Below, in pieces: positions 4,825 through 16,722 of a stretch of 47,487 bases of DNA. Both the position numbers and the translations under genes were made by a program. Source of the DNA: Thermoproteota archaeon (GTDB lineage: Archaea > Thermoproteota > EX4484-205 > JAAOZP01); assembly GCA_049700215.1 (NCBI GenBank), contig JBNAVT010000017.1, positions 1 to 47,487 of the forward strand, read 5' to 3'. Under the pieces are notes generated by a model. The model worked only from the letters and a program-made list of their open reading frames with translations. It had not been told where the DNA came from and searched no databases. Position 1 is the first letter of the stretch; the number at the start of each line of letters is the position of its first letter.

Positions 4825-4915
4825 TGGACCGGGTGGGAGTCGAACCCACGACCCCCCGCATTCTGGCCTTTTTCTGGGTCGCCAAGCGGGTATTCTACCA
4901 CTGAACTACCGGCCC
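4825..4915 (-). tRNA. tRNA-Ala(GGC) with 19-nt intron at 37/38 (intron 4861-4879)
   Basis: GGGCCGG/CCGGTCC acceptor with G3:U70, CCCGC-TTGGCG[intron]T-GCGGG, TTCGA T-loop; BHB helix TTGG/CCAG; TATA-like element at about 4941-4948. Confidence 0.95.
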
Positions 4916-9595: not shown

Positions 9596-11503
9596 CTATT
9601 CCTCCAGCCAGTCCTCTTTCTCCAGGTTTTCAGGGGAAACATAGTTTCCAAACTTTCTCTGTGCTTTCACTAATCGTTCCCTCTGCTCCTCGAGGATGCT
9701 GAACAGTTCTCGCGGCGTGTCTTCAACATTCTCCCTGAAAAACCTCTCCACACGGTTTATTTTAGCTATGTTTTCACGGACGCGCGTCGTGAACTGTTTC
9801 ACGTAGTCAGTCTTAGAGTATTCGACGCCACGCACCTCTCGGAACAGTCTTCTCAAGTCCTCGTACCTCGGGATCCAGCCGGTCGGGGTTTTCACGGCGT
9901 CCATGTCTCCATGAACCCTCAGCTCCATCCATTTCATCCAGACCTGTTTATCCCTCCTGTCGTTCAGGAACTCTCCCGTTTTCAAGTCTCTGAGAAAATA
10001 GTTAACCCCGAAGACGAGAGGCTGCTTCCTAAGCCTCCTGCCGAATTCAAGATTGTTATACACGTACTTTCCAAGCGGGATTGAGACGAAGTCCTGAATA
10101 CTCATAATGTTTATCTCATACTTACCCTCGTCCTCAACCAGCGTGAAAGTGGTTTCTGTCTCAAGCGCAGCCCCGTACGCGATGATGCCGTGCTCCCAGC
10201 TGAAGGCCTGTTGAACAGGCACATATCCCCGTGCGTCACGACACCCGTATATTATCCCGCCCAGCTCAACACCCATATGGTTGTCAAGCTCAGGGTCACA
10301 GTTTCCAAGTGCTTTAAGAGAAACAGTGTAGCGGGCATTCTTGTTGGCAGGAGGGATTTCCTCACCCTTCTCATCCTTCTTACCCTCCCACCAGTAGCCA
10401 GTGTAATTCTCCCCGTCCCTCGGGATCTCGCATCCCATGCCCAGCCAGTATGGCTTACCATCCTTGACAAGCACGTTTGAAAAAATCACCTCGCCGGGTT
10501 TCGTGAGTACTTCCCAGATGACAGGGTCGTCGACAGGATTAACATCCTTAAGAATCCCGAAGATACCGGCTTCAGCGTTGACTGCGCGGCAAACCCCCTT
10601 GATGTTTCTCAGGTAAGCTATGTCGTCAGCAAGAATAGTGTTCCCCGGGATCATTGCGGTAGAGGTTTTCCCGCAACCGCTTGGAAAAGCCCCTGCGAAA
10701 TAGGTTTTACGCCCACCTGGGCCACGGACCCCTGTTATCATCATGTGTTCCGCCAGCCACCCTTCCCAGTGGGCCCTACGGATTGTCAAGCGTAAAGCAA
10801 GCTTCTTGAAGCCGATGCTATTACCGCCGTACTGAGTATTAACACTGTAAACAATGTTTTCAACATAATCTATGTAGACGCGCTTCTTATCCGGCTCCAT
10901 GCTGATCATCCTCTCGTCAAGCTTGCCCGCCGAGTGGAGAACACAGAATAGGTCGTCTGGAACCTCGCCGCGGCGAAACGCTTCATACGCTTGGCGGTAG
11001 AGAAGGTCAACAGAGTGGGCGACGTACCAGGAGTCAGTGCACTCCATGCAGGGGATGCTGAATATTGAGCCGACTGGCCCCAGTGTGAGAAAGCGGATGA
11101 TCATCACGCGTCCCCGCATAATGTTTCTCAGCAGGCTTCTTATCTCGGCTAAGCCCTCCTCCCGCTCAACCTGGTTAAGAGCCTTGTCGAGCGAATCCCA
11201 CTTTGGCACGAGATATTTAGTGGACTCCCGGTCCCTACCCTGGTCACGCGGCCCGTCAAAATGATAAGTATGCCCCGGGATTGCCAAAGGCTTCTCCTCG
11301 CCTGAAACAACTGCCTGACGCCTCACGTACGCGATGTCCTCCGGCGAATCAGTGCAGACGAATACTTGATCAGGGTTGCACAGCTCCACTGACTCGGAGA
11401 TAAAGCGGTGGACCCTGGGAACAGGTATGGCGGCAAGCTTCAAGTAGTCAGCCTCACTTATTCTTGCTCTCAATGCTTCAAGATACTGCTGCATTTTCCT
11501 CAC
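9596..11503 (-). CDS. pckG: Phosphoenolpyruvate carboxykinase (GTP)
   Basis: YGGNSIG.KKLALR, WLAEHM, AFPSGCGKTSTAM, DDIAY, NARYT, VNYF. Confidence 0.93.
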   Translation of the reverse strand: MRKMQQYLEALRARISEADYLKLAAIPVPRVHRFISESVELCNPDQVFVCTDSPEDIAYVRRQAVVSGEEKPLAIPGHTYHFDGPRDQGRDRESTKYLVPKWDSLDKALNQVEREEGLAEIRSLLRNIMRGRVMIIRFLTLGPVGSIFSIPCMECTDSWYVAHSVDLLYRQAYEAFRRGEVPDDLFCVLHSAGKLDERMISMEPDKKRVYIDYVENIVYSVNTQYGGNSIGFKKLALRLTIRRAHWEGWLAEHMMITGVRGPGGRKTYFAGAFPSGCGKTSTAMIPGNTILADDIAYLRNIKGVCRAVNAEAGIFGILKDVNPVDDPVIWEVLTKPGEVIFSNVLVKDGKPYWLGMGCEIPRDGENYTGYWWEGKKDEKGEEIPPANKNARYTVSLKALGNCDPELDNHMGVELGGIIYGCRDARGYVPVQQAFSWEHGIIAYGAALETETTFTLVEDEGKYEINIMSIQDFVSIPLGKYVYNNLEFGRRLRKQPLVFGVNYFLRDLKTGEFLNDRRDKQVWMKWMELRVHGDMDAVKTPTGWIPRYEDLRRLFREVRGVEYSKTDYVKQFTTRVRENIAKINRVERFFRENVEDTPRELFSILEEQRERLVKAQRKFGNYVSPENLEKEDWLEE

Positions 11504-11757
11504 CCAGGTGTTTCAGAATTGAAGCACCCGGCCTAGCCCCGCCACCCGTGTCCAGCCGCGTGTCTTCAACCGGTTTCCCACCCATGCTTGCCGGCGCCAC
11601 GTGTAGGCGAGGCTTAAAAAGTTTCTCTGAAACAGGTATTTCTTTATTACGGATTCTGATTAATGATTCAGTCTCGTAAAGCCTACAGGGTTGAGCGTCA
11701 CAGCCGGCTTGCAGGCTGAAGGCCTAGAGGGAATGCCCGACGCTCTTGGCGCATGGA

Positions 11758-11771
11758 GAAAAGTTAATAAA
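11758..11771 (+). promoter_or_regulatory. BRE/TATA-like promoter for the riboswitch-led transcript
   Basis: GAAAAG-TTAATAAA about 25 nt before a leader hairpin (11795-11814). Confidence 0.5.
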
Positions 11772-11814
11772 GCTGCTGGGCGAAGGGCTTGGCCAGCCGT
11801 CCTTTGGTACGGCT

Positions 11815-11865
11815 AGGAGATGGAGCTCTCCTCCAACCGCCTCAAGCGAGGCTGATAGCTCCTAC
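11815..11865 (+). ncRNA. Fluoride riboswitch (crcB motif)
   Basis: AGGAG-AUG-GAGC-U-CUCCU-CCAACC-GCCUC-AAGC-GAGGC-UGAUA-GCUCC-UAC: P1 AGGAG/CUCCU, conserved GAUG, AAAC/AACC-type linker, P2 GCCUC/GAGGC, CUGAUR, pseudoknot GGAGC/GCUCC, terminal UAC. Confidence 0.88.
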
Positions 11866-11867
11866 TC

Positions 11868-12740
11868 TTGTACGTGTGGAGGATGGTGTGGTTGGGAACC
11901 GAGGCGGTGAGGATCGGGAGGAGGATTCTGCTGCGGAAAACAGTAGAGTATATTACTGCTAGGCAGAACGATGACGGGGGGTATACTTCTGTCCAGTTCA
12001 CGGACTCCACTCTCTACGATACTTATCTTGCCTTCGAAACACTGAGGCTTCTTAAAGTAAGCCCTCCCAGGGTTGATGACACTATAACATGGGTTAGAAA
12101 CTATAAAGCTATGAACATTAGAGACTATTATCTTATTAACAGGATTCTAATGGTTCTAAACCAGCCTCTGATAGATGTTTCCAAGCATGTTTTTGAACTA
12201 ATGGATTCCACGGGAAGGTTTGGAGCATCCGAGGTTGACGTTGAAACAGTTTCAGAGGTTGAAACAACCTTCATGTGCGTGGAGCTTATGAGCATGCTTA
12301 ACTTTGAGCAGAACCGGGGCAGGATAATAGGGTTCCTTCTTTCCCTGAAGAATCCTGACGGCGGATTCGGCGCCGCGGGGTCAAGTCTAAACTCAACCTT
12401 CTACGCTCTCAAAACGCTTTCAACGCTGAACCATCCTGTTGATGGGATGCTGGACACTCTGCGCTTCGTCAGGATGCATGAGAATCCTGACGGGGGCTTC
12501 TCCCTTAAACCGGGTGTCAAACCATCCTTCATGGAGCCGACTTTCATGGGGTTAACGTGCCTCCAATTGTTTAACGAGGACCCCATCTACCCTATTGAAA
12601 CCATAGGCTTCATCCTGGGCTGTCAAAACTCTAACGGAGGGTTCAGGAGGAGCCTGGAGCACGGCATCTCTACTTTCGAGTATACTTTTCAAGCAGTCTC
12701 TTCCCTAAGGATGCTGGGCCTAGGGGTGGAAGCGTTTTGA
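11868..12740 (+). CDS. Prenyltransferase/squalene oxidase repeat protein (COG1689-like)
   Basis: Repeated QNDDGGY, NPDGGFG, ENPDGGFS, QNSNGGFR motifs, each followed by a T.. helix; true start probably downstream (about 11883-11907). Confidence 0.85.
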   Translation: MYVWRMVWLGTEAVRIGRRILLRKTVEYITARQNDDGGYTSVQFTDSTLYDTYLAFETLRLLKVSPPRVDDTITWVRNYKAMNIRDYYLINRILMVLNQPLIDVSKHVFELMDSTGRFGASEVDVETVSEVETTFMCVELMSMLNFEQNRGRIIGFLLSLKNPDGGFGAAGSSLNSTFYALKTLSTLNHPVDGMLDTLRFVRMHENPDGGFSLKPGVKPSFMEPTFMGLTCLQLFNEDPIYPIETIGFILGCQNSNGGFRRSLEHGISTFEYTFQAVSSLRMLGLGVEAF

Positions 12741-13210
12741 GCAGCAGCCAGCTGGACAAGAAGCATGAGCGGTTTGTTTTCTCCGCCGCTCTAGCTCTCC
12801 GGAAATACGTTAAAGACTTGAGGAGACTGGTTTACGAGGGCGAGCCCCCGGAGGCCTCGGGCGTAGCGGGCAGGCCTGCAGCGCTTTCAGGCGGCGACGC
12901 GGAAAACTTTGCCAAAAAGCTTAACGAGATAGAGCGAATAATCGACGAGTTTACTGAAAGATTCAACCCTAGGGTCAGCAGTGAGCCCAGCCTAAGCCTG
13001 ACATACATATGGATAAGTATACTTCTCGGGAAAATGGAGGGCATTGTTGAAAGCATTGATCCGCGGAGCCTCGGGAAAACCAGGGGAGAGATGCCGCGTG
13101 AACTCGAAGCATATCTCGACACCAGGGTTAAGACTCTTCTAAGCCTCATCAGGGGATTGAGGTCAACCTACACTACTGCCGCCAGCAAGACCCAGTTGCC
13201 CACAGAGTAA
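12737..13210 (+). CDS. Hypothetical all-helical protein, translationally coupled to the upstream gene
   Basis: 157 aa, 4-nt TTGA start/stop overlap. Confidence 0.7.
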   Translation: MSSSQLDKKHERFVFSAALALRKYVKDLRRLVYEGEPPEASGVAGRPAALSGGDAENFAKKLNEIERIIDEFTERFNPRVSSEPSLSLTYIWISILLGKMEGIVESIDPRSLGKTRGEMPRELEAYLDTRVKTLLSLIRGLRSTYTTAASKTQLPTE

Positions 13211-13241
13211 GCATTATATTTTCCGCCGGGCCTGGTTTACA

Positions 13242-13736
13242 ATGCTGATGGAAAGAGCTGAAGCCAGGCGGAGGCTGCTTGAGCTTGTTGAAAGGTTTCG
13301 CGAGAAAGGTGCTACAAGCCCCGACAAGGCCATGACCCCTGAGGAGCTCGGCCTCCCACCTTGGTTTAGACGCCTCATGCGCAGCCGCCTTGGGAAGCTG
13401 GGAGTATTCGTTGAGAAGGACGGCAAGTATTATCTTTCCGAGGAGCGTTTAAAGCAGCTGGAGAAAATGAGGGGTGAAATGCTGGAGGCCCGGAGCGCTC
13501 GGAGAAACCTGTTCATGCTTAGGATAGCGAGAGTAACTGTTGGAATACTACTCGTATCACTCCTGCTGGTGAACATTTACGCTAGGGATCCCGGTGTTAG
13601 AACCGTGTATTCCATACTGCTGGTCGCCCTGCTAGCCGTATCAATCCTTCAGCTCTACTATTTGACGAAGACTAGAAAGATTTTCGAGGCGCGATTGAAA
13701 AAAGGAAACATGGCGGCACCGCCCAAATCTGTTTGA
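13242..13736 (+). CDS. Hypothetical membrane protein with N-terminal wHTH-like region
   Basis: Two C-terminal TM helices; GATSP.KAMT.EELG...GKYYLSE. Confidence 0.65.
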   Translation: MLMERAEARRRLLELVERFREKGATSPDKAMTPEELGLPPWFRRLMRSRLGKLGVFVEKDGKYYLSEERLKQLEKMRGEMLEARSARRNLFMLRIARVTVGILLVSLLLVNIYARDPGVRTVYSILLVALLAVSILQLYYLTKTRKIFEARLKKGNMAAPPKSV

Positions 13737-13776: not shown

Positions 13777-16722
13777 CTATCCTTTCACAACGCCCAGGGG
13801 CACTAGCCTGGCGACCTTGCGTGAAATACCCGCCCTGTGCGTGACCTCCACAACCTCGTCAGGATCCTTGTATGCTCCCGGAGCCTCCTCAGCAACAAGG
13901 TTCATGTCCGCAACCCTAAGGTAGACTCCTCTCTCCTCAAGCATCCCCCTGATCTGCCTACTCGTGAACCTCCGCATCGCCTCATGCCTGCTCAGCATTC
14001 TCCCAGCGCCGTGGGCTGTTGAGCCGAAGCTCGCCTCCATCGCAGCCTCAGTTCCAACGAGAACCCAGCTGGCTGAGCCCATTGAGCCGGGTATTAGAAC
14101 AGGCTGGCCGTACTGCCTGTACTTGGAGGGAATATGGCTGCTCCCAGGTGGGAAAGACCTGGTAGCGCCCTTCCTGTGGACGACAACCCTCTTCCCCTCA
14201 CCGTTAACCTTGTGGTCCTCAATCTTAGCAATGTTGTGCGCAACATCGTAGAGAACGTTCAAGCCAAACTCGGAAGCATCCTTTTTAAAAACCTTCGCGA
14301 AGCTCTCTCTAACCCAGTGGGTGATAACCTGCCTGTTTAGGAAGGCATAGTTCACGGCGCAGGCCATGGCTGCAAAATAGTCCCTAGCCTCCTGGCTTTC
14401 AACCGGGACGGCTGCCAGCTCCCTGTCCGGCAACCAGATGTTATACTTCCTGCTCGCCGCCTCCATGGTTTTAAGATAATCACTGCAAATCTGGTGGCCG
14501 TATCCACGGCTCCCCGTATGTATTAGTACCACTATCTGGCCGACTCTCTCAATGCCAAATCCCCTAGCAACCTCCCCATCGATAATCCTCTCCACATAGT
14601 CTATTTCAAGGAAATGGTTTCCGCTTCCCAGGCTGCCCAGCTGTGGCAGGCCACGCCTCTTAGCGGTGACGCTCACCCTGCCCGGGTCCGCGCCCCGTAG
14701 GCAACCGTTCTCCTCAATGAACTCCGCATCCTCCCTCCAGCCGTATCCACGCTTAATAGCCCAGCCGACACCTTCCCTGACAGCAGTATCCAGCTCGTCG
14801 AAGCCCATTCTAAGCTTACCCTCAGAACCCAAGCCTGAAGGAACATTACGGAAAATCTCGTCCAGTAGCTCTCTTAAAACAGGCTTAACGTCGCCAACAT
14901 TCAGATTCGTAAGCAAGAGTCTTACTCCACAGTTTGAAACCACGAAGCCGTTAGCTATGAAATTGTGAACGTCGTCCTTAACAGTAAAATCGTAAACCTC
15001 CTCGTTGAACAGTAGTTCCTCCTTCTTCACAATCCTGTCCCAGACCGCGCCTGTTTTGCCGAGGCCCCTCGTCGCCGACTCTAGAAAATCCTCGAAGGAG
15101 GGGAAGTTTAACGGCGCTCTTGGAAGGCTTTTCCTCTCCCCATACAGAGATCTTTCGATAAACCTTCGGTTTACGTATTCAGACTCTAGGCTTTCATATA
15201 TAGTTGTGTTAGACAAGCCCCCGTTCTTCATGGCTATGGCTACGAGTTCCGCATTCTTCCTAGCCTTTATAATACGCGTCTTCAGCTTCAAGTAGTGGAC
15301 AGCAACGTTTGCAAGATGCTTCTTCTCCCTGTTGTATTCAAACCCGACTGCACCCCATAGTTTGACTAAATTCTCCGGGGAACCAGATATTATCAGGCGG
15401 AGCCTGGCGGAAGCACTTTTCTTCCCCTTAACCGCTTCAGGCTCAACTGTTATTTTCTTAACTTTAACTCCGAATTCTCCCAGAAGCAGAGCGATCTGCT
15501 TAAGGAACTTTACGCCAGCCTCCTCGCAACCCTTTTTCTTGTTCTGACTCAGGACGGGCATATAGAAGTTGAAGGGATGCCCTGTGACTGTTTTCGGCTT
15601 GGAAAGCTCGGCTCCGAAGAACGCGGCGAGGAAAAGCCTCTTCTGCCAGAGGGGGAGCCTGAACAGCCATTCGGGTAACGCGTATTTCTGCGAGGCCTTG
15701 TTTCCCAGGGGGACGCCCATTGCAGCCATAAGCGAGATAAAGCTTCTTGAACAAACCTTAATACTGTGCTCGACCGTTATAAAACCGTACTCGCTGTATT
15801 TAGTTTTAACCCTGTGTCTTCTAACCCTTGAATAGATTTTAGAGGGTTTAAAGCCCACGCGTAAAACATCGCTCCTTATATCCTCTAAGTCTTCAACCCC
15901 CGCGAAGAAACAGGCTGAGCGGCTCTTCTCAGTGTATACTAGAACTCCATCACCGAGTATAAAGCCCATTAGCTTAAGCAGATATGGAAATTTAATGTTA
16001 TCACTCTTCAACGGAAGAAGTCCTCTTCTCTTGAGTTCAGAGAGCACTAGGTTTTTTCGGCCGGGAACCTTAAGACGCTTTATATCATCCTCCGTCACTA
16101 TAGTTATGGGCTCAGCATTTTCATAGAGTACTCCCTCAAACGGGTAGACGGCAACATCCTCACAGCCTATCTCGCTCAACGGCACCATTCCCCTGCGTGT
16201 GAGGAAAGGATGGTCCTCTGTGGCTATTATCTTCATGCCTGAGCTTGTTTCAACCCTGAAAATCCTCCTGTCAGGGCGAATCCTGATGAAACCCACGATC
16301 TCAGTGGGCTTAGCACCCTTTTCAAGACTAACGCATGTAACCCGTTCACGGTTCCAACTGTTTAAGAACTCTTTAATGGGAAGCCTGTAGCCATGCTCAT
16401 GTAGAATCATGCTGTCCCCCGCTAAGCAGTTGATATCATATCCCACGCCGCCGGGTGATACAACTCCTTCCTTAACGTCAAAAGCACCGACTCCTCCGAT
16501 CGGAAAGCCATAGCCTTCATGACCATCTGGTAGAATAATCGAATATTTATATATCCCGGGAAGTGTTGCCACGTTTAATCCCTGCTCAATCGTTTTATCC
16601 TGCGTCATCTTCTGTAACAACGTTTCATCCGCAAAGATTTTAAGCGGCACTCGCATCCCCTTCTTAGTGCCCACGCTAACTTGGTATTCTACATCCGAAA
16701 CCTTTTCAAACCCGTAACTCAT
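13777..16722 (-). CDS. rtcB: tRNA-splicing ligase RtcB, intein-containing
   Basis: PDGHEGYGFPIG, GYDIN/CGVRL, GSGNHFLE, HTGSRG.GH, HNIAK, HRKGAT, HGAGR, EEAP.AYK; 981 aa = 482 extein + 499 intein. Confidence 0.96.
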   Translation of the reverse strand: MSYGFEKVSDVEYQVSVGTKKGMRVPLKIFADETLLQKMTQDKTIEQGLNVATLPGIYKYSIILPDGHEGYGFPIGGVGAFDVKEGVVSPGGVGYDINCLAGDSMILHEHGYRLPIKEFLNSWNRERVTCVSLEKGAKPTEIVGFIRIRPDRRIFRVETSSGMKIIATEDHPFLTRRGMVPLSEIGCEDVAVYPFEGVLYENAEPITIVTEDDIKRLKVPGRKNLVLSELKRRGLLPLKSDNIKFPYLLKLMGFILGDGVLVYTEKSRSACFFAGVEDLEDIRSDVLRVGFKPSKIYSRVRRHRVKTKYSEYGFITVEHSIKVCSRSFISLMAAMGVPLGNKASQKYALPEWLFRLPLWQKRLFLAAFFGAELSKPKTVTGHPFNFYMPVLSQNKKKGCEEAGVKFLKQIALLLGEFGVKVKKITVEPEAVKGKKSASARLRLIISGSPENLVKLWGAVGFEYNREKKHLANVAVHYLKLKTRIIKARKNAELVAIAMKNGGLSNTTIYESLESEYVNRRFIERSLYGERKSLPRAPLNFPSFEDFLESATRGLGKTGAVWDRIVKKEELLFNEEVYDFTVKDDVHNFIANGFVVSNCGVRLLLTNLNVGDVKPVLRELLDEIFRNVPSGLGSEGKLRMGFDELDTAVREGVGWAIKRGYGWREDAEFIEENGCLRGADPGRVSVTAKRRGLPQLGSLGSGNHFLEIDYVERIIDGEVARGFGIERVGQIVVLIHTGSRGYGHQICSDYLKTMEAASRKYNIWLPDRELAAVPVESQEARDYFAAMACAVNYAFLNRQVITHWVRESFAKVFKKDASEFGLNVLYDVAHNIAKIEDHKVNGEGKRVVVHRKGATRSFPPGSSHIPSKYRQYGQPVLIPGSMGSASWVLVGTEAAMEASFGSTAHGAGRMLSRHEAMRRFTSRQIRGMLEERGVYLRVADMNLVAEEAPGAYKDPDEVVEVTHRAGISRKVARLVPLGVVKG
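14932..16428 (-). mobile_element. Intein with LAGLIDADG homing endonuclease in RtcB
   Basis: Begins CLAGDS, block B ATEDHPF, LMGFILGDG, LAAFFGAE, ends VYDFTV...HNFIANGFVVSN followed by Cys+1. Confidence 0.95.

Follow-up and report, generated by a model that had tools for sequence, protein, structure and literature searches.

A fluoride riboswitch before a soluble prenyltransferase-like toroid gene in a hot-spring Thermoproteota archaeon: a candidate export-independent response to fluoride

To our knowledge, the described answers of cells to fluoride are essentially Fluc/CrcB channels and CLC-F antiporters, plus compensation for enzymes that fluoride inhibits. The fluoride riboswitch class (Rfam family RF01734, the crcB motif) usually precedes Fluc/CrcB or CLC-F genes. 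Here we describe a fluoride riboswitch that lies before an operon of another kind, encoding a soluble toroid protein related to prenyltransferases and terpene cyclases and, as second gene, an orphan partner. The locus belongs to a 47,487-nt stretch of DNA from a Thermoproteota archaeon (assembly GCA_049700215.1, contig JBNAVT010000017.1, positions 1-47,487 of the forward strand), and this whole stretch is referred to as the window. The assembly, with a completeness of 94.6%, comprises 85 contigs totalling 2.09 Mb. A sequence-only reading of the window had proposed that riboswitch and gene pair form a "non-exporter fluoride-response module", and this proposal is taken up below.

Other genes have been reported behind the motif. 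In the accessible part of Weinberg et al. 2010 (PMC2864571), the crcB-motif genes include mutS and genes for K+ or Cl- transport and formate hydrogen lyase, and the accessible part of Sherlock and Breaker 2020 (PMC7266159) discusses eriC and the crcB motif. In Thermococcus kodakarensis, according to the accessible part of its description (PMC4247193), a fluoride riboswitch lies upstream of TK0513, next to the crcB gene TK0514. The window locus is similar to this case, as far as that part describes it, in that the first gene behind an archaeal riboswitch is not crcB. It differs in that crcB is next door in T. kodakarensis, whereas the genome of the window has none. A toroid-like gene is not mentioned in the accessible parts of PMC2864571, PMC7266159 and PMC4247193. 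Our literature search found no link between the fluoride riboswitch and a prenyltransferase-like protein, DUF6062 or COG1689; supplementary gene tables lay outside this search, and an earlier listing is possible. No Thermococcus isolate was present among the 51 loci retrieved with the toroid homologue of a 'Thermococci' metagenome-assembled genome (MAG; class of 5 genomes).

The element in the window resembles its class in its full-length match to the model, its covarying P1, P2 and pseudoknot helices, its position in a 5' leader and its predicted ON logic. Unlike the usual members, it carries an extra conserved 5' hairpin and precedes a soluble toroid gene and an orphan instead of Fluc/CrcB or CLC-F, and its expression platform, in an archaeon, appears to be translational. 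The operon shares with Fluc/CrcB and CLC-F genes the regulator and the presumed purpose in fluoride stress; unlike these exporters, its products are without membrane segments and without sequence relation to them. In some Bathyarchaeia both kinds of system occur side by side, a CrcB-DUF190 operon with its own riboswitch lying beside the toroid operon.

The fluoride aptamer and its link to the toroid family

The 47-kb window was scanned on both strands with cmscan against all 4227 Rfam families. A fluoride riboswitch aptamer was found at 51.5 bits (E 1.7e-11; gathering score 34), on the same strand as the toroid gene and in its 5' leader (Table 1). The match spans the whole model, positions 1-64 of 64, all conserved core positions of RF01734 are matched, and the helices P1 and P2 and the pseudoknot can be read directly by inspection of the sequence. 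It is the single copy of this riboswitch in the whole assembly. The sequence-only reading had recognised a crcB motif at 11815-11865 and had named a covariance-model score and the presence of the motif at homologous loci as checks. That motif falls within the match, the score stands well above the cut-off of 34, and, as set out below, the aptamer recurs at 70-71 of 80 toroid loci.

Homologues of the toroid were collected with one genome per species, and the best 80 of 130 stretches were each scanned with Rfam. At 70 of the 80 loci an aptamer at or above threshold lies upstream in the same orientation, with its end 17-112 nt (median 57.5) away from the toroid protein match. Nine of the ten loci without a match were scanned again with laxer settings; the tenth, L018, has just 71 nt of upstream sequence and was left out. 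The laxer scan yielded a 71st aptamer, at exactly 34.0 bits (L076), and none was found at the eight others (L033, L053, L061, L066, L071, L075, L078 and L079).

Alignment of the 71 toroid-linked aptamers revealed that 98.9% of the P1, P2 and pseudoknot cells are paired. Compensatory changes occur in 7 of the 14 pairs, and the pseudoknot, which is paired in 100% of cells, accounts for two of these covarying pairs. None of 500 shuffles matched the observed covariation values, and the values collapsed when the 3' partners were slid by 1-3 columns. Pairing and covariation across the 71 instances thus indicate functional aptamers kept under selection before the toroid family, and we regard the fluoride aptamer of the window as almost certainly genuine.

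The gene that follows the toroid is variable. Within 120 nt 3' of it we found DUF6062 at 29 of the 80 loci, the partner family of the window at 17 and another orphan of ~220 aa at 8; at 15 loci nothing follows within this distance, at 4 the contig ends, at 5 other genes follow and 2 are unresolved. Profile comparisons revealed no relation among the different second genes, and the 80 loci have no conserved membrane partner in common. What stays constant is the combination of riboswitch and toroid, of which the window shows the Brockarchaeota-type variant. The partner named by the sequence-only reading does overlap the toroid here, but with 17 of 80 loci it cannot count as a fixed component of the module.

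Under the riboswitch of Bathyarchaeia toroid operons, the second gene encodes a DUF6062 protein, a family in which Cys and His residues are conserved, and a ~220-aa family without Pfam match as well as pairs of small coiled-coil proteins are also encoded there (example loci L018:878-1591, L044:3837-4652, L056:3823-4482, L028:4568-5393 and L062:1818-2523). MFS and CrcB genes with riboswitches of their own lie within a few kb of the toroid operon at Bathyarchaeia loci.

Toroid, partner and the distribution of exporters

Two open reading frames (ORFs) were confirmed behind the aptamer, 11868-12740 (290 aa) and 12737-13210 (157 aa), which overlap by 4 nt. The 290-aa repeat gene named by the sequence-only reading exists as an ORF, but its start has to be moved. 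The TTG at 11892 is invariant in 16 aligned relatives, an in-frame ATG at 11883 is not conserved, and public gene calls give a toroid of 282 aa. Together with the invariant Shine-Dalgarno sequence, the invariant TTG and these calls place the gene at 11892-12740. Toroid and partner form a two-gene operon that begins 20 nt 3' of the aptamer match.

The toroid protein matches PF00432 at 65.4 bits (cut-off 26.5). Its AlphaFold2 (AF2) model (pLDDT 89.9, pTM 0.88) is a single domain of 12 helices, which alternate with four conserved N-x-D-G-G-F/Y hairpins. The best Foldseek matches are the beta chains of GGTase-III and RabGGTase (TM 0.78, E 2.4e-9; 6o60_B and 3dss_B), and comparison of hidden Markov models (HMMs) with the same beta chains gave an E value of 3.8e-15. 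The FTase beta chain is also among the closest structures, and weaker matches in both searches include squalene-hopene cyclases, drimenyl diphosphate synthase and MstE. The protein is soluble and acidic (pI 5.3), has no hydrophobic segment (maximum KD19 0.95) and is encoded once in this genome (1 match). In a search for longer proteins, 13 distant paralogues were retrieved, all at or below 34% identity, and among them there was no informative or close fusion of a toroid with a transporter.

Akin to prenyltransferase beta subunits, the protein is a toroid of 12 helices with a repeated GGF-type hairpin motif. It is, however, ~50-150 residues shorter, and its funnel would be lined by acidic and hydroxyl-bearing residues. 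In 18 sequences, down to 37% identity, the residues D43, T44, E118, S121, E122, S164, S168, E215, S260, E263 and T265 are invariant besides the hairpins. S39 is to be added to these invariant positions, and all of them are predicted to sit around the central funnel, each at the N-terminus of an inner helix or immediately ahead of it. The zinc ligands of RabGGTase-beta (1dce_B), which we take to be D238, C240 and H290, align in the HMM alignment with a Ser, the invariant E215 and, by repeat register, the invariant E263. None of the 3 Cys and 4 His residues of the toroid is invariant, and the genome contains no match to PF01239, the alpha-subunit (PPTA) repeats. Since both zinc ligands and alpha subunit are missing, the toroid is not a canonical prenyltransferase. 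Class II terpene cyclases likewise share its repeat family and toroid fold; unlike them, it is single-domain and lacks the conserved DxDD, its only DD (62-63) not being conserved. Identity as a class II terpene cyclase was rejected, given the absence of DxDD, the single 282-aa domain and scores of 13-25 bits with the NCBIfam cyclase models TIGR01787 and TIGR01507, whose cut-offs are 323-431.

The partner has no match in Pfam or NCBIfam. Its AF2 model consists of five helices (pLDDT 82.2), and the protein is basic (pI 8.9) and has no membrane segment. No fold in the PDB matched at E <= 0.001, and the best score in the ESM Atlas, 0.88, lies under the meaningful level. A word-indexed search retrieved 30 relatives at E <= 0.001 and a full profile search 43 representatives, 16 of them with E <= 1e-10. 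By these searches the partner appears almost confined to the archaeal order of the window, and its relatives include bacterial proteins of ~145 aa, one from a Poribacteria MAG. Such remote bacterial relatives occur at 9 metagenome loci, with toroid and riboswitch not nearby, and two single-protein locus scans made with them found nothing. On one metagenome contig (L146:2811-4759), a single case, the bacterial relative stands divergently beside a 345-aa DUF6062-containing protein, again with neither toroid nor riboswitch in the vicinity. Comparison of the partner with DUF6062 (PF19538) gave an hhalign probability of 0.3% with a narrow and 0.1% with a broad profile, and comparison with cluster 5 and the coiled-coil families of toroid operons gave at most 0.8%. 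Prediction of a complex of toroid and partner returned a score of 0.00 (mark 0.32), which speaks neither for nor against binding. The beta/alpha heterodimer suggested by the sequence-only reading is not supported: the PPTA repeats are absent from the genome and the zinc positions are Ser/Glu/Glu, and the partner has neither a Pfam match nor a structural match in the PDB.

Neither PF02537 (CrcB) nor PF00654 (CLC) has a match in the assembly, and the toroid and the partner do not match these families either. The earlier observation that no exporter is recognisable in the window thus holds for CrcB and CLC in the whole genome. In a sample of 26 genomes of the order, this one included, CrcB is present in none, which makes the proposed label of a non-exporter module a fair one. 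The toroid is present in 23 of the 26 genomes, the partner, always directly 3' of the toroid, in 21, and the fluoride riboswitch in 20, with one copy each except for a single genome with two. Wherever all three occur they are adjacent. CLC was found in 4 of the 26 genomes and is riboswitch-linked in none of them.

The wider phylum was sampled with 401 genomes of at least 85% completeness. The toroid occurs in 48 of them, CrcB in 74 (a count that includes the unpublished genome G415) and both in 7. An RNA scan of 151 genomes of the phylum returned 35 riboswitch matches in 31 genomes. Judged by coordinates, 23 of these lie directly before a toroid, 4 before CrcB and 8 elsewhere, and no other gene stands directly behind a fluoride riboswitch as often as the toroid in this sample, in which the order of the window is enriched. 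As 14 of the 23 toroid-linked matches come from that order, the sample cannot be treated as independent. Matches from outside the order number 20, of which 9 precede a toroid and 4 CrcB. The other 8 precede genes for a Na+/H+ exchanger with a universal stress protein (Usp), Mrp-antiporter/hydrogenase-like genes, an MFS gene and a 282-aa orphan; one of them lies near a contig end with no ORF of at least 70 aa after it, and one is below threshold.

Several of these loci deserve separate mention. In L145 (G122:C11:27500-30400) a predicted operon consists of riboswitch, Na+/H+ exchanger, universal stress protein and toroid, and in L140 (G038) the same arrangement occurs without the toroid. A second riboswitch of G038, with 41 bits, lies directly before the 282-aa coiled-coil protein, which has no Pfam match (L141:118-1060). 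By eye only, this protein looks similar to the small coiled-coil proteins encoded in Bathyarchaeia operons, and its comparison with the toroid profile gave an hhalign probability of 0.1%. In L142 and L143 (G058 and G065) the riboswitch precedes Mrp-antiporter-like and hydrogenase large-subunit-like genes, which recall the bacterial association of the riboswitch class with formate hydrogen lyase.

Leader elements and surroundings of the operon

The features of the locus and of its surroundings are collected in Table 1. The TTAATA region upstream of the aptamer is a probable archaeal promoter: all 16 aligned relatives have the TTAATA unchanged, and this TATA box lies 38 nt upstream of the aptamer match. 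From the usual spacing of archaeal promoters, the transcript would start near 11790-11795. Across 16 sequences, the six proposed pairs of the hairpin P0 show 92.6% pairing, and at one of them both sides have changed (G-C in 11 sequences, A-U in 5), possibly in a single event. Within the Shine-Dalgarno sequence the GAGG is invariant in 16 sequences and the first G nearly so.

Table 1. Features of the window around the fluoride riboswitch operon.
Feature	Positions	Strand	Remarks
Candidate promoter	11756-11772	+	purine-rich stretch resembling a B recognition element (BRE); TATA box TTAATA 11764-11769
5' hairpin P0	11795-11814	+	lineage-specific; directly before the aptamer
Fluoride riboswitch aptamer	11807-11871	+	RF01734
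P1 helix	11815-11819 with 11828-11832	+	
Pseudoknot	11822-11826 with 11858-11862	+	
P2 helix	11839-11843 with 11848-11852	+	
Shine-Dalgarno sequence	11878-11882	+	GGAGG; 9 nt before start codon
Toroid gene	11892-12740	+	282 aa; TTG start
Partner gene	12737-13210	+	157 aa, all-helical; TTG start overlaps toroid stop by 4 nt
TTATA(T)TTT block	13215-13223	+	3' of partner stop codon
Neighbour gene	13248-13736	+	162 aa; conserved ATG 13248-13250
GTP-type phosphoenolpyruvate (PEP) carboxykinase gene	9596-11503	-	divergent from riboswitch operon
RtcB tRNA-splicing ligase gene	13777-16722	-	981 aa; intein-interrupted, PF01139 split
tRNA	4825-4915	-	Rfam 58.4 bits; sole Rfam match in the window besides the aptamer

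Downstream of the partner gene, positions T25, T26, A27, T28, A29, T31 and T32 of the TTATA(T)TTT block are invariant in 8 of 8 aligned relatives. The block probably serves as the end of the riboswitch operon (a T-run), as the TATA box of the 162-aa gene, or as both. The 162-aa protein has no Pfam match; its N-terminal part is soluble and its C-terminal part hydrophobic (KD19 2.18 near residue 90). By tblastn its gene was found 3' of the partner in only 9 related loci, and it is probably a separate transcription unit outside the core module.

On the other side, the intergenic region between the PEP carboxykinase gene and the riboswitch operon extends over 11504-11891. The intein of the RtcB gene (PF14890) covers residues 106-597. 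The tRNA has 22 nt inserted behind its anticodon stem region, which are probably an archaeal intron, and ARAGORN called no tRNA gene at this position.

Predicted switching, possible function and its alternatives

The leader suggests how the switch might work. Between the aptamer and the start codon there is no run of at least five T; translational control is favoured on this account, and attenuation of transcription, for which an oligo-T tract would be expected there, is considered less likely. The 3' strand of the pseudoknot contains a CUCC to which the Shine-Dalgarno GGAGG, 16 nt further downstream, is complementary, and this GGAGG is therefore the probable target of the regulation. Partition-function folding of 16 leaders gave the Shine-Dalgarno sequence a mean pairing probability of 0.71 in the free ensemble, 0.55 of it with the pseudoknot 3' strand, and of 0.38 with the aptamer locked. 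When fluoride is absent, the CUCC of the pseudoknot would be free to pair with the GGAGG; fluoride would lock the pseudoknot and thereby release the ribosome-binding site. The toroid gene would then be translated and the partner along with it (an ON switch), as the 4-nt overlap of the partner TTG with the toroid TGA suggests translational coupling. Both the translational mechanism and the induction by fluoride are steps that we infer. Regulation by fluoride appears well supported by the comparative sequence evidence, and the aptamer very probably controls both the toroid and the partner gene; that it does so by sequestering the Shine-Dalgarno sequence is somewhat more probable than not.

The operon would then be the only fluoride-responsive unit of this genome, and it would lower toxicity inside the cell and not by export. 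A position behind the switch at nearly all loci suggests that the toroid is needed mainly when fluoride is present, and the solubility of both products, together with the lack of a conserved membrane partner, points to mitigation in the cytoplasm. We consider it fairly likely that the proteins act there and not as a transporter. The fluoride aptamer itself holds fluoride through magnesium. In a similar manner, a funnel lined with carboxylates and hydroxyl groups would capture fluoride jointly with one or more hard metal ions, or as a metal-fluoride complex, and the bound species would be kept away from sensitive enzymes. Such binding in the funnel is the specific mechanism that we prefer, but it is speculative and, in our estimation, rather unlikely. 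Overall, a fluoride ON switch that leads to a soluble toroid and partner for intracellular mitigation is the best explanation we can offer, and we give it about an even chance. The more specific proposal, that toroid and lineage-specific partner are an export-independent resistance determinant which captures fluoride or metal-fluoride in the funnel and serves as the main defence of Brockarchaeota-type and many Bathyarchaeia lineages lacking Fluc and CLC-F, is tentative and on the doubtful side.

A number of observations weigh against intracellular mitigation under a sequestering switch. The folding signal for sequestration is modest: in the leader of the window itself, Shine-Dalgarno pairing drops only from 0.78 to 0.63, and the folds used energy parameters for 37 C although the organism is from a hot spring. 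Moreover, complementarity of this kind is automatic for any fluoride pseudoknot beside a GGAGG. Nine of the 80 toroid loci are without an aptamer, L018, which is cut off upstream, among them. The partner differs by lineage, and hence the pair of the window may not be one functional unit. CrcB is rare throughout the phylum, and its frequency among toroid genomes (7 of 48) is not below that among the remainder (67 of 353); its lack is thus not peculiar to toroid carriers, which weakens the argument that the toroid replaces CrcB, and an unrecognised exporter in toroid genomes is possible. The placement of the invariant residues in the funnel is deduced from secondary structure and repeat register. 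An acidic funnel alone does not bind an anion, and the metal requirement is assumed. Finally, one-for-one sequestration is a weak defence against a continuous influx of fluoride.

Other explanations have to be set beside intracellular mitigation. The toroid might be an enzyme of isoprenoid or membrane-lipid metabolism, and fluoride might induce a remodelling of the membrane, for instance towards a lower permeability for HF. All of the closest solved structures handle isoprenoids, of which archaeal membranes are made. However, the HMM alignment shows neither the zinc ligands nor the positions that we take to bind diphosphate to be conserved, the protein is a single 282-aa domain without DxDD and without a membrane segment, and its invariant funnel residues are acidic or hydroxyl-bearing and not aromatic; we consider this quite unlikely. 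A carboxylate-rich funnel would also be compatible with the active site of a magnesium-dependent enzyme that is inhibited by fluoride, the riboswitch raising its level in compensation. Bacterial fluoride regulons contain such compensation, as with enolase and pyrophosphatase. This sits badly with a single-copy gene placed behind the switch at 70-71 of 80 loci, since a housekeeping enzyme so placed would be largely off without fluoride, and with a gene absent from most genomes of the phylum, whose presence in only 48 of 401 argues against a core enzyme. Compensation is accordingly an improbable explanation.

An equally improbable one is that toroid and partner are accessory or regulatory parts of an unrecognised transporter, for which the 162-aa protein, a Na+/H+ exchanger or an MFS protein could be considered. 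The toroid is the third gene in the L145 operon, behind the Na+/H+ exchanger and Usp genes, in one genome; riboswitch-bearing MFS and CrcB genes lie a few kb away in Bathyarchaeia loci, and a small membrane protein is encoded behind the pair in the window. Yet across the 80 loci no membrane partner is conserved, the 162-aa gene accompanies the pair in 9 related loci only and has a conserved TATA-like element of its own, and among the 13 matches to longer proteins (<=34% identity) there are no close fusions with a transporter. The extra 5' hairpin, lastly, could be taken as a sign that the aptamer is a relic or senses another ligand, the gene pair having nothing to do with fluoride. A score well over the curated threshold with all core positions matched and structure-preserving covariation across 71 instances make this highly improbable, as does the occurrence of the same aptamer class in related genomes before CrcB, MFS, Na+/H+ exchanger-Usp and Mrp/hydrogenase-like genes, of which we take CrcB, MFS and Na+/H+ exchanger-Usp to be typical members of fluoride regulons.

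Returning to intracellular mitigation, the locus joins a known sensor class to an unexplained and apparently dominant archaeal effector. The pattern is order-wide, with switch and toroid present and CrcB not found. Because the riboswitch names the stress, the function of an uncharacterised branch of the prenyltransferase/terpene-cyclase superfamily becomes accessible to testing to an unusual degree. Orphan families of the riboswitch operons also come within reach, among them DUF6062, the 157-aa partner and the small coiled-coil proteins. Should the proteins prove to bind fluoride or metal-fluoride, they would represent a new principle of resistance and a possible scaffold for the sensing or capture of fluoride. 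The operon may thus point to an undescribed way in which a hot-spring archaeon copes with fluoride.

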